DNA of 60,288 nucleotides from an uncultured Gammaproteobacteria bacterium (GCA_963924875.1 CAWUSX010000003.1:1-60288), one strand, 5' to 3'. Counted from the stretch's first letter, positions 12,324-56,916 are shown. The notes: generated by a model from the letters alone, not told the origin. A program made the numbers and translations.

Positions 12324-12902
12324 ATGACAAAACAGATAATTCGTTGTGCCTGGGTGGGTGATAATGTCCTGTATCAGCAATACCATGATACAGAATGGGG
12401 CGTGCCCAGTTTTGATGACAGGCATTTATTTGAAATGTTAATCCTGGAAGGTGCGCAGGCGGGATTAAGCTGGCTGACAATTTTAAAAAAACGAGAAGGA
12501 TACCGCAAGGCATTCGACAATTTTTCAGCAGCGAAAATAGTAAATTATTCACCTAAAAAAATTGAAACATTATTACTGAATCCTCAGATTGTACGGAATC
12601 GACTAAAGGTAAATGCTGCGGTTGTTAATGCGCGGGCGTACTTAAATGTATTGCAGGAATATAAAACGTTTTCTGACTACATTTGGCAGTTTGTAAATCA
12701 CCAGCCGATGGTGAATAAATGGGAATCGCTGTCTGAAGTTCCGGTCACAACAAATGAATCCGATGCAATGAGCAAAGATTTAAAAAAACGAGGGTTTAAA
12801 TTTATCGGCTCAACTATTTGTTATGCCTATATGCAGGCAGTTGGCATGGTGAATGATCATACCCTGGATTGTTGCTGTTATAAAACACCCAGAAAGCATT
12901 AG
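12324..12902 (+). CDS. tag: DNA-3-methyladenine glycosylase I
   Basis: 'RCAWV...YHDTEWGVP', 'EGAQAGLSWLTILKKR', 'QAVGMVNDH'; GAGG SD before 12321/12324. Confidence 0.94.
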   Translation: MTKQIIRCAWVGDNVLYQQYHDTEWGVPSFDDRHLFEMLILEGAQAGLSWLTILKKREGYRKAFDNFSAAKIVNYSPKKIETLLLNPQIVRNRLKVNAAVVNARAYLNVLQEYKTFSDYIWQFVNHQPMVNKWESLSEVPVTTNESDAMSKDLKKRGFKFIGSTICYAYMQAVGMVNDHTLDCCCYKTPRKH

Positions 12903-13531
12903 TCCTTAGTGTTAAATTCGTTTAAAAATTGTGCGCATTTGTTTTTAATGTCGGGGATGTTCTGTGATGAAAATAGCTCGCTGATAACCGCTAACATATC
13001 TGCTTTTTCACGCAGTAGTTCTCGGCAGTTTTGTGTGGTAATGCCGCCAATACAACAAACTGGGATATCATAATTGTTTTTTATGGAACTGATTAATTCC
13101 ACTTCTGCTTTTGCTGCCTCCGGTTTTATCGTTGAACCAAAAAAACTTCCAAATGCAATATAATCTGCGCCATCCTCAATCGCCTGTTTCGCAAGATCGA
13201 TACTGTTATAGCAGCTTACGCCAATGATTTTATTGTGACCCAGGTGTTTTCGGGTTTCTCTAATTGAAGTATCGTCTTTTCCAATGTGAATGCCATCGGC
13301 ATTCGATAGTATGGTGAGGTCTATATCGTCATTGATGATTAGAAGTGCATTGTACCGATCGCACAAAATCCTTAGTTCATGAGCCTGTTTAATCCTTTTT
13401 TCAGTGTCATGGCTTTTGTCGCGATATTGAATAATGCGTACACCAGAGGAAAGAGCGGCTTCAGCCATAGAACTAAAGTCATTAATGGGCATTAATGACT
13501 CGTCGGTGATGGCATATAGACCAGACAGTAT
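12899..13531 (-). CDS. thiE: Thiamine-phosphate synthase, probable non-canonical start (ATA at 13531)
   Basis: 'QYRDK', 'LIINDD', 'GIHIG', 'IGVSCY', 'IGGIT'. The conserved 'LSGLYAITD' lies in frame upstream of the track ATG (13492). Confidence 0.88.
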   Translation of the reverse strand: MLSGLYAITDESLMPINDFSSMAEAALSSGVRIIQYRDKSHDTEKRIKQAHELRILCDRYNALLIINDDIDLTILSNADGIHIGKDDTSIRETRKHLGHNKIIGVSCYNSIDLAKQAIEDGADYIAFGSFFGSTIKPEAAKAEVELISSIKNNYDIPVCCIGGITTQNCRELLREKADMLAVISELFSSQNIPDIKNKCAQFLNEFNTKD

Positions 13532-13568
13532 TGTTTTCCTTTGCGATTTAAAATTTTAAGTGAAATGG

Positions 13569-14345
13569 TTAGTGACGATTTGGAATGAGTTGTCCGTTAC
13601 CAAGTGCCTGTGCTTTTAGTAATGATTTGTAAGTGAAGTCAAGGGCGTTTTGGCAGGCATTAATGGGCTCTATTTCCTGTGCAACTAATGCGGAAAGGCT
13701 GGCCGCTAATGTACAGCCTGATCCGTGATATTCATTGTTTAGACGTTTGTATTTATATGAATTAATGCATTTCATTTTGTGATAGAGCTTGTGAACCACA
13801 TTAATTGATTTTGCATGTGTTCCGGTAATTAAAACGTGTTGTGCACCCATGTTGTTTAAATGCTGCGCGGCATTTTCTGGTGATAATTTTGGGCTCGTCA
13901 AATGCAGGGCTTCAAAAATATTTGGCGTGAGTATATATGTGTTAGGAATAATCAGCGTGTTGACGGCATCAATAAGATTCTTTTTTGCCAGGCTGGAACC
14001 ACCGCCGGCAAATAGTACAGGATCATAAATAACGGGGATATCCGGATATTGTCTAATTAATGTATAAATAGCTTCTGCGACGGCTCCTGAGCCTATCATA
14101 CCAATTTTAATTACTTTCACCGGCATGTCTTTTAAAATGCTTCGTGCCTGCTTTAGTATCAGCTCTGCATTTACTGGCTCAAAACTTTTAACGTTTTTGG
14201 TGTCCTGAATAGTATTTGCTGTGATGATGGGTGCGGCGTGACAGCCGTGCTGGCCAATGGATTCAATATCAGCCTGAATGCCGGCACCACCTGTGGGATC
14301 AAGCCCGGAAAAGCAGAGAACGCTGGGAGAGTTTATTCCTTTCAT
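13569..14345 (-). CDS. thiD: Hydroxymethylpyrimidine/phosphomethylpyrimidine kinase
   Basis: 'SGLDPTGGAGIQAD', 'KIGM', 'LTPN', 'HGSGCTLAA'; directly upstream of thiE. Confidence 0.9.
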   Translation of the reverse strand: MKGINSPSVLCFSGLDPTGGAGIQADIESIGQHGCHAAPIITANTIQDTKNVKSFEPVNAELILKQARSILKDMPVKVIKIGMIGSGAVAEAIYTLIRQYPDIPVIYDPVLFAGGGSSLAKKNLIDAVNTLIIPNTYILTPNIFEALHLTSPKLSPENAAQHLNNMGAQHVLITGTHAKSINVVHKLYHKMKCINSYKYKRLNNEYHGSGCTLAASLSALVAQEIEPINACQNALDFTYKSLLKAQALGNGQLIPNRH

Positions 14346-14398
14346 TTTGGATCAAGCCCAGAAAAGCAGAGAACTATAGGAGAGTTTGCTCTTTTCAT
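14342..14398 (-). CDS. Putative 18-aa minigene MKRANSPIVLCFSGLDPK, coupled to thiD
   Basis: Its TGA overlaps the thiD ATG (ATGA). Translation not demonstrated. Confidence 0.45.
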   Translation of the reverse strand: MKRANSPIVLCFSGLDPK

Positions 14399-14451
14399 TT
14401 TGGATCAAGTCCAGAAAAACTGAGAACGCTGGGTGGGGTCTTCTTTCTCAT
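14395..14451 (-). CDS. Putative 18-aa minigene MRKKTPPSVLSFSGLDPK
   Basis: GAGG lies 11 nt upstream; its TGA overlaps the next ATG (ATGA). Translation not demonstrated. Confidence 0.45.
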   Translation of the reverse strand: MRKKTPPSVLSFSGLDPK

Positions 14452-14603
14452 TGTGGGCTAAGCCTCAATGCGCTAAATAAAATATGTGATTGTAGTAATC
14501 TCACGTAGGGCCTGGGTAAGTTTTTGTAAAATAAAAACATTTGTTTCGGTGCGTATTCTAGTTTTTTTTGCAATGAGCTGTCAAAGGTATGGGGTGAATT
14601 TTA

Positions 14604-46926: not shown

Positions 46927-47479
46927 GCCCTCATCAAAAAACAGATGAGGGTTCCTGAAAACTGTTTGTTACGCCTTTCGTGAATTTATTAATCTGTTAG
47001 TTCATTGCTTTTTTTCCGGGTCGTTTCGATGCGCCGTCCGGGCTTATTCGAAACTCACGCACATTCATTTTATTTGCCCCTTTAGCTATACAGTTTTCAG
47101 CTAGCAACAGGGCGGGTTGTCGCCAGACTGAAATTAATCTCTTCTGCTCTCGAAAAGCAAAGTCCTAAAGCGATTTCAATAGATGGGTGGATCAAACGAA
47201 GTGGATCCACCATTGTTATGAAGCATGGTGGAACCGCGTTGCTTGTTCCACCCTACAAAATCCTATGGGATTTATGAGCTTGCGAAAAACTTCCCTGTAC
47301 CTTGCCAAAAATTGTTTCTACCCAGGGGCAAAATCACACGGACGTGATTTTGAGGGTTGATAAGCCAGGACGGCGCATCAACCCGACCCGGAAACGAAGC
47401 TTTAAACTAACAGAATAATAAACACTTATATATTATCTTAAAGAATTTTTGGGAACCCTCATACGCTTTTCATGAGGGC
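46927..47479. repeat. About 550-bp element bounded by ~120-bp imperfect inverted arms (46927-47054 / 47354-47479)
   Basis: Matching blocks CCCTCAT..ATGAGGGTTCC, TTTATTA.TCTGTTAGTT and TTTCCGGGTC..TGCGCCGTCC.GGCTTA on opposite strands. Confidence 0.8.
47180..47256. repeat. Pair of inverted GTAG-type REP-like palindromes (REPIN/BIME-like)
   Basis: GGTGGATC-N-GATCCACC (47187-47211) and, on the minus strand, GTAG-GGTGGAAC-N-GTTCCACC (47256-47227), with a 15-nt spacer. Confidence 0.75.
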
Positions 47480-56491: not shown

Positions 56492-56600
56492 AAATATGCT
56501 CACCTAAGCAATTGAATATAAATGAATAAACGTTATCGGTGAATAGAAGTTATATTTTTAAATTGTGGAGTCATTGTTAATCCTGTATATTTCGCGCACT

Positions 56601-56801
56601 TATTACAGGTCCTGAATTGTCAGGATAATAGGGAAGTTAGTGAATCGGGCAATATATTATTGCTTGGATAATTCTAACACTGCCCCCGCAACGGTAATTG
56701 AGTTAAATGTATCAGTTTGGTTATTCTAGCTAAACAGTCACTGCGAAAGTGGGAAGGCGATACATTTAATGCCTCATGAGTCCGGAGACCTGCCCGTAAT
56801 A
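56601..56801 (+). ncRNA. Cobalamin riboswitch
   Basis: AATAGGGAA..GTGAA, ACTGCCCCCGCAACGGTAA, GTCACTG..GTGGGAAGGC and GAGTCCGGAGACCTGCC; closing P1 TATTAC/GTAATA; upstream of a TonB receptor. Confidence 0.95.
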
Positions 56802-56916
56802 GCTAACCATAAAGTTGCGGAGGGCGACTCGGTGCAGACTCATATACCTGTTTTCAGTTTTATAGTCTCTCCATTCCTTTGCAACATTATCTTTCTCTAA
56901 AATTTTAGGTGAGCTA

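Follow-up and report, generated by a model that had tools for sequence, protein, structure and literature searches.

A copy-number-variable tandem duplication of the thiD start and a probable ribosome hand-over along it in a clade of uncultured Gammaproteobacteria

How does a gene stay expressed when its own start has been duplicated in front of it? The question is raised by thiD in a 60,288-nt stretch of DNA (the window; GCA_963924875.1, CAWUSX010000003.1:1-60288) from a metagenome-assembled genome, 69% complete, of a free-living gammaproteobacterial lineage. On the minus strand of the window, thiD (13569..14345) encodes a hydroxymethylpyrimidine/phosphomethylpyrimidine kinase of 258 amino acids (Pfam PF08543 Phos_pyr_kin, E 1.3e-64), and thiE (12899..13540), encoding thiamine-phosphate synthase (Pfam PF02581, E 4e-55), is the second gene of the operon. 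Two further copies of the first 53 nt of thiD precede the gene. A first-pass annotation of the sequence had proposed that translation of thiD and thiE may depend on a re-initiation relay or on leader-peptide control, or that the encoded peptides may interact with ThiD. These proposals are considered here in the light of the relatives that carry one, two or three copies, a set of alleles from which it can be seen, across one natural clade, how a gene can survive the duplication of its own start.

Anatomy of the array

The array consists of three tandem 53-nt units, arranged head to tail on the minus strand and starting at 14451, 14398 and 14345. The last unit, c3 (14345..14293), is the first 53 nt of thiD and carries the true thiD start. 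Because 53 equals 3 x 17 + 2 and thiD begins with ATGA, each of the two upstream units can be read as an ORF of 18 codons whose stop falls on the start that follows. Unit c1 (14451..14399) is uORF1, MRKKTPPSVLSFSGLDPK, with an ORF span of 14395..14451 and a TGA at 14397..14395 that overlaps the following ATG; unit c2 (14398..14346) is uORF2, MKRANSPIVLCFSGLDPK, with an ORF span of 14342..14398 and a TGA at 14344..14342 that overlaps the ATG of thiD. The co-directional 4-nt ATGA overlap that is expected of translationally coupled pairs is thus present both between uORF1 and uORF2 and between uORF2 and thiD, and the same stop/start overlap is found in all 13 distinct leader units of relatives. 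The units are identical at 38/53 positions (72%) for c1 and c2, 44/53 (83%) for c2 and c3, and 38/53 (72%) for c1 and c3, without indels, and Tandem Repeats Finder describes the array with a period of 53, 2.5-3.0 copies and a score of 196. The threefold tandem repeat, the two 18-residue upstream ORFs with their TGA inside the next ATGA, and the 72-83% identity without indels had all been recorded in the first-pass annotation and are confirmed.

A direct repeat flanks the array: the hexamer CCCACA lies at thiD codons 17-18 (14292..14297, minus strand) and again at 14457..14452, where it abuts the c1 ATG. A genome-wide search for the same unit found it at the thiD locus and nowhere else. The array is a local duplication of the thiD 5' end and not a mobile element.

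Distribution and history of the array

Relatives were collected by scanning metagenome contigs and by looking up the contigs that encode the closest ThiD proteins. Arrays of leader copies upstream of thiD, for which the first-pass annotation had suggested searching relatives, were found, as nine distinct array alleles confined to one shallow clade of uncultured relatives in which ThiD is 86-98% identical (support 82/93 on the thiD-body tree). These make up 9 of the 14 distinct alleles in the clade. Three units are present in the window, L034, L036 (= L074) and L060 (= L069-L072), and two units in L032, L033, L061, L063 and L073. A single unit is found within the clade in L035, L038, L039, L043 and L062, as well as in every lineage outside it, including all relatives with 72-78% identical ThiD, more distant genomes, and all 11 other species of the genus, whose representatives (best ThiD identity 77%) are too distant to inform on the array. 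Copy number differs between strains that are about 2.5% apart on the thiD-body tree, both for the window versus L032 and for L036 versus L063. In L032, with ThiD 98% identical to that of the window, the window's c2 is missing, and the 5' half of this c2 is the same as the true ThiD start of L061 (MKRANSP).

The junction between units, CCAAA/ATGA, is invariant in the 13 distinct leader units, which come from at least nine independent metagenome assemblies (JGI, ENA assemblies made with SPAdes and MEGAHIT, and Logan), and in all 13 the ATG and the stop are retained, with 18 codons and a length of 53 nt. The recurrence of the same junction across independent assemblies shows that the array is neither an assembly artefact nor a 54-nt repeat miscalled as 53. 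An artefact, be it a collapsed or expanded repeat or a miscalled length, could be suspected in a 69%-complete metagenome-assembled genome with a nearby oddity, a thiE without its ATG; however, the units differ at 9-15 of 53 positions and so are neither collapsed nor mis-joined, different assemblers return the same 53-nt junction, and five independent assemblies (JGI, ENA, Logan) gave an identical three-unit array for L060. The probability that remains for such an error is close to negligible. The more specific idea of a miscalled homopolymer (AAAA after GATC) that hides a 54-nt in-frame repeat was rejected for the same reason, as the junction is the same in every independent assembly.

The c1-type units of relatives encode MKKKNSPIVLCFSGLDPK, which is the true ThiD N-terminus of one-unit relatives, and they keep the ancestral N-terminus MKKKNSPIVL. 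Codon 4 is AAG (Lys) in c1 units and in one-unit genes, and the derived GCN (Ala) in all downstream units. The c1 of the window holds the ancestral thiD start together with its initiation region. A common junction and a common derived codon 4 indicate a single origin of the arrays.

The array is most likely the product of one microhomology duplication that was later resized by unequal crossing-over, as judged from the sequences of the alleles. The duplication would have occurred by slippage between the flanking CCNACA hexamers; the one-unit allele L039 has CCAACA at both flanking places, 54 nt apart, an arrangement typical of the sites at which microhomology duplications arise. The event may have been an in-frame duplication of 54 nt from which one nucleotide was then deleted (CCAACA to CCAAA), or a direct duplication of 53 nt. 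Later changes from two units to three and from two to one would be accounted for by unequal crossing-over between c1 and c3 within the conserved 3' half, and the reciprocal product of such a crossover would be a one-unit allele with a c1-type start, as is seen in the clade's one-unit alleles. In each lineage, c2 is similar to the c3 type found there, indicating that the third unit arose at least three times (in the window group, in L034 and in L036). In L034, c2 is identical to c3 and is a very recent duplication.

Monophyly of the array alleles on the thiD-body tree is rejected (AU test, p = 0.019), and at least four state changes are needed. Divergence profiles along the locus are mosaic, indicating frequent homologous recombination. 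Together, the lack of monophyly and the mosaic divergence indicate that losses, or the exchange of alleles by homologous recombination, are part of the history of the array. The AU result is read in these terms, and not as multiple origins, because the junction and codon 4 are shared. There is no sign of a mutation hot spot at the array, since the window and L032 differ no more densely within it than in the rest of the locus.

Constraint on the leader units

The differences between the units of the window had been described as mostly synonymous. Synonymous differences are present, but they lie mostly on the thiD copy, which is under selection as ThiD, or they are shared states that gene conversion could spread, and the window alone consequently says nothing about selection on the peptides. 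The comparison between lineages is more informative. Between array lineages, p-distances are 0.36-0.50 for the 5'UTR and 0.39-0.46 for third-codon positions of thiD, versus 0.14-0.26 for c1 (pairs without L061), with 7-17% in the 3' half of c1. The rate of divergence of c1 is thus roughly half that of the 5'UTR or of third-codon positions in thiD.

The dN/dS comparison of leaders that had been suggested was made with a self-written GY94-type codon maximum-likelihood fit. In the ThiD frame, c1 has an omega of 0.25 (likelihood-ratio statistic 14.2 versus omega = 1), which falls to 0.17 when L061 is left out; the two alternative frames of c1 give 2.4 and 4.4, and the true ThiD N-terminus gives 0.12. 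Between the c1 units of L034 and L036 there are 8 synonymous and 0 non-synonymous changes. In neutral simulations, run along the tree scaled to neutral divergence, all nine c1 copies kept their start and open frame in only 0.4% of runs. Gene conversion among the units is visible, however, and can explain part of the signal. At codon 16, the three units of the window all have GAT and the two of L032 both have GAC; L036 (GAT in its three units) and L073 (GAC in its two) differ in the same way. Such joint switching within arrays indicates that the signal of purifying selection may be partly imported. When only those changes in c1 are counted that the thiD copy of the same genome cannot have supplied, there are approximately 11 synonymous versus 17 non-synonymous changes, which is not significant.

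Constraint on the peptide is not uniform. The c1 peptide of L061 has decayed (MKKTTPPLVVSLSELNPK, 7 non-synonymous changes) next to an intact thiD, and L033 carries P7L and S13P. Random decay in relatives had been named as the mark of a neutral remnant; the c1 peptide of L061 is decayed, and ATG, length and stop are kept in every leader unit. On the sequences available, there is firmer support for maintenance of the ORF, with its start, its length and a stop that falls on the next ATG, than for maintenance of its peptide.

A further pattern concerns the codons that follow the start. Codons 2-5 read KKKN, with 9-10 A in 12 nt, in one-unit genes and in most c1 units. In the true thiD copy behind arrays, the same codons read KRAT, KRVA, KKAT, KRAN or KGIN. 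This looks like a transfer of the constraint on the initiation region from thiD to c1, as would be expected if de novo initiation had moved to c1. Nine array alleles with intact and constrained mini-ORFs would fit a relay that is translated.

Codon 8 of thiD in the window (14322-14324, minus strand) is AGC (Ser), as in the window's own c1, and ATC (Ile) in the closest relatives, L032, L060 and L061. The AGC may represent a short gene-conversion tract running from the leader copy into the enzyme gene.

Initiation signals and the probable relay

A sigma-70-type promoter of thiDE precedes the array (14555..14584, minus strand), with TTGACA (14584..14579) and TAGAAT (14560..14555) separated by an 18-nt spacer and matching 11/12 consensus positions. 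In the alignment, TTGACAG and AAAAAAACTA(A/G)AAT are unchanged across 17 relatives, and the spacer contains an invariant A7-A8 tract, AAAAAAACTARAAT. The promoter is followed by an AU-rich 5'UTR of about 95 nt (14452..14548, minus strand), in which an alignment of relatives shows CACGTGA and ATTGAG(G/A) motifs to be conserved. Its length (approximately 95-105 nt) and the motifs CAGGCnnnACGTGA and ATTGAG(G/A) are kept in about 17 lineages, though 36-50% of sites differ. A novel RNA element in the 5'UTR was considered and rejected: the motifs are conserved, but RNAalifold finds 0 consensus pairs among 11 leaders, and the single-sequence fold is no better than that of shuffled sequences (z = +1.05). 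The conserved motifs of the spacer and 5'UTR, where RNA structure is not conserved, may instead be candidate protein-binding sites.

No TPP riboswitch had been visible in the first-pass annotation, and this is upheld by the Rfam searches: nothing in the window matches RF00059, whether at the gathering score or at E<=10, no other Rfam family matches the thiDE leader, and the whole genome of the window, 69% complete, holds no RF00059 match. Among the other genus genomes, 10/11 have one RF00059 match each (four above the family cut-off), and wherever positions were compared it lies at a locus other than thiDE. The absence of a TPP riboswitch from thiDE and its presence elsewhere in the genus indicate that thiDE is not riboswitch-controlled in this group. 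Just two Rfam matches in the window exceed the gathering score, both on the plus strand: a cobalamin riboswitch (56590-56811, 94.9 bits) and a TwoAYGGAY RNA (47303-47427, 54.7 bits).

A GAGG at 14466..14463, previously read as a recognisable Shine-Dalgarno (SD) sequence of the first unit only, is present, and no AGGA, GGAG or GAGG occurs in the 20 nt that precede either the second or the third ATG; however, the GAGG sits 11 nt ahead of the c1 ATG and is GAGA in most relatives, so that the SD of c1 is at best weak. A canonical SD is thus absent from all units. One-unit relatives likewise have no well-placed SD and rely on an A-rich start context, which is common to all units.

Taken together, the array is most probably (we put this at about 0.58, from comparative sequence data) a lineage-specific, copy-number-variable duplication of the thiD start in which ribosomes would pass from uORF1 to uORF2 to thiD by termination-reinitiation. 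The ancestral initiation region, that is the promoter, the 95-nt unstructured AU-rich leader, the ATG and the A-rich codons 2-5, would now serve uORF1, so that ribosomes would load at uORF1, the ancestral start. They would terminate at the UGA within AUGA and re-initiate immediately, twice, to enter thiD; translation of the mini-ORFs and re-initiation are the putative steps of this scheme. With such a hand-over the duplication would cost little expression of thiD and thiE, and ThiD/ThiE output could go up or down with the number of relay steps. The array is thus most likely tolerated, and perhaps used, by way of ribosome hand-over to thiD. Two features temper this reading. The thiD ATG has the A-rich surroundings without an SD that it also has in one-unit relatives, and may therefore initiate independently, which would make the relay unnecessary; and the one-unit alleles inside the clade show that the leaders are dispensable. 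The array is real, evolving and evolutionarily maintained, a variant of ordinary translational coupling.

The independent use of the thiD ATG is central to the notion that the extra units are a neutral scar, without effect on a gene that starts on its own ATG, their frames being kept intact and their divergence low by concerted evolution, through conversion or unequal crossing-over with the selected thiD copy and through recombination with one-unit alleles, and not by selection on the leaders. This is possible, if on balance unlikely. The joint switches of codon 16 across the units of an array and the mosaic divergence profiles are what such exchange would produce, and the turnover of copy number between strains about 2.5% apart, the presence of one-unit alleles in the clade, the decay of the L061 c1 peptide, the lack of a significant synonymous bias in c1-specific changes, and the very recent origin of the L034 c2 as a copy of c3 are all consistent with it. 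It accounts less well for the c1 units of L036/L063, in which TCG, GTA, TGT and TCA represent 4-5 synonymous and 0 non-synonymous changes that their own c3 cannot supply. Moreover, the 5' half of c1 is its own in all lineages and is never covered by conversion tracts, yet ATG and frame survive in all nine c1 alleles, and the KKKN start in four, where neutral survival of the frames is expected in just 0.4% of cases. Finally, KKKN was lost from the true thiD copy only where an array is present.

At the other extreme, the array might be more than a relay. A selected device, in which c1 serves as the ribosome entry, selection also acts on the self-copy peptide (strand beta1 and SGLDP loop of ThiD), for instance as a nascent-chain signal, and the unit number (1, 2 or 3, changed by unequal crossing-over) acts as a heritable rheostat of ThiD/ThiE in a riboswitch-less thiDE, is conceivable but improbable. 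Somewhat more doubtful still is a regulatory leader, in which thiamine, HMP or translation status is sensed by the mini-ORFs or their peptides, or these act on ThiD, so as to set the expression of thiDE, or in which copy number is a selected rheostat. The in-frame omega of c1 (0.25, or 0.17 without L061), the invariant junction, the status of arrays as the majority state of the clade (9/14 distinct alleles), the repeated origin of the third unit (at least three times) and a thiDE operon that has no TPP riboswitch while the genus keeps its single one at another locus would all agree with regulation. Against it, alternative hairpins, a terminator on the coding strand and conserved structure are all absent from the leader, as is an informative codon run; the peptide is decayed in L061 and carries S13P and P7L in L033; the same habitats are occupied by one-unit relatives; and neither folding nor binding is likely for an 18-residue piece of a strand that, given the ribokinase-like fold of ThiD, would be buried. 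The earlier proposals of leader-peptide control, in a thiamine- or HMP-responsive form, and of an interaction of the peptides with ThiD find no support: there is neither riboswitch nor terminator nor conserved fold, a single unit suffices in close relatives, and the first peptide of L061 has decayed. The invariant junction would also permit a -1 frameshift, with tRNA-Lys slipping on A_AAA before the UGA (CCA AAA UGA to CC AAA AUG), to yield ThiD with an 18- or 36-residue N-terminal repeat. The shift at the A AAA TGA would bring the next ATG in frame, the junction never varies, the units look protein-constrained in that frame, and the putative ancestral 54-nt duplication would have been in frame. 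Nevertheless, an X XXY YYZ heptamer is absent, leaving only the tetramer A AAA, no stable downstream stimulatory structure is predicted, an extra core beta strand has no evident use, and the ATG of every unit is kept, needlessly for a fusion. Such a fusion is very unlikely.

The relay that we favour has close parallels among known systems. Coupling at -4 overlaps and uORFs that deliver ribosomes to a downstream gene have been reviewed (PMC12548453, citing Huber et al. 2019, 2023; Shell et al. 2015). The thiD array resembles ATGA termination-reinitiation pairs in having co-directional ORFs, an ATGA overlap and a downstream start without its own SD, and also in a short upstream ORF whose presence seems to be more important than its product. 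It differs in that the upstream ORF is a copy of the first 17 codons of the gene itself, chained twice and variable in copy number, and in that coupling is inferred. The mycobacterial MIRU and MIRU-VNTR repeats, whose units exploit coupling at -4 overlaps, offer a second parallel (PMC12548453): they are 40-100-bp tandem units of variable copy number at start codons, with a small ORF per unit and a -4 overlap with the gene, an arrangement thought to render insertion harmless to expression. The thiD array is MIRU-like in that close relatives have 1, 2 or 3 units, each an 18-codon ORF ending in ATGA; but MIRUs are interspersed at many loci and are unrelated to the flanking gene, whereas the thiD unit is found at a single locus and is derived from thiD itself. 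Leader-peptide attenuators of the trpL, hisL, pheL and pyrL type share with thiD a short ORF in the leader of a biosynthetic operon. The thiD leader lacks their hallmark pair of terminator and antiterminator hairpins, a regulatory codon run and conserved structure, and its ORF stop overlaps the gene start rather than preceding a hairpin. Literature searches returned no match for a thiD leader peptide or uORF, and nothing specific on coupled uORFs derived from tandem duplication. The array is therefore best described as a self-derived, copy-number-variable form of uORF-to-gene termination-reinitiation coupling, a variant of a known process and not the undescribed mechanism that the first-pass annotation had thought it might be.

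The arrangement has some general consequences. When a duplication of 3n+2 length spans an ATGA start, the old start automatically becomes that of a coupled uORF. With its alleles of 1, 2 and 3 copies, its shift in constraint and its gene conversion, this locus offers a natural system for the efficiency of stop-start re-initiation and for the birth of uORFs, and copy number would be a simple, evolvable expression dial if the number of relays changes ThiD output. Such arrays can also mislead the calling of start codons in annotation.

Two further observations concern starts in the same genome. At thiE, where every close relative, the 98%-identical L032 among them, has an ATG (caaATGAAAAAAATACTG), the window reads AGG at 13540..13538 (caaAGGAAAACAATACTG), through two substitutions that are unique to the window genome. 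The window thiE would need an ATA or CTG start, or the Met 16 codons downstream (13492), and either a genuine loss of the start or an error in the consensus could account for the change. One other start-spanning duplication, with a unit unrelated to that of thiD, was found when the whole genome was scanned with Tandem Repeats Finder. It is 32 nt long (3n+2) and lies on the minus strand, across the TAATG at which the stop of one gene overlaps the start of the other in a pair formed by a MoxR-like ATPase gene and a DUF58-like gene (G000:C78:14589-14649 = L079:1190-1250). The result is a relay mini-ORF of 10 codons, MAENPQQVSI, bounded by TAATG on either side; in four genus relatives the junction has a single TAATG.
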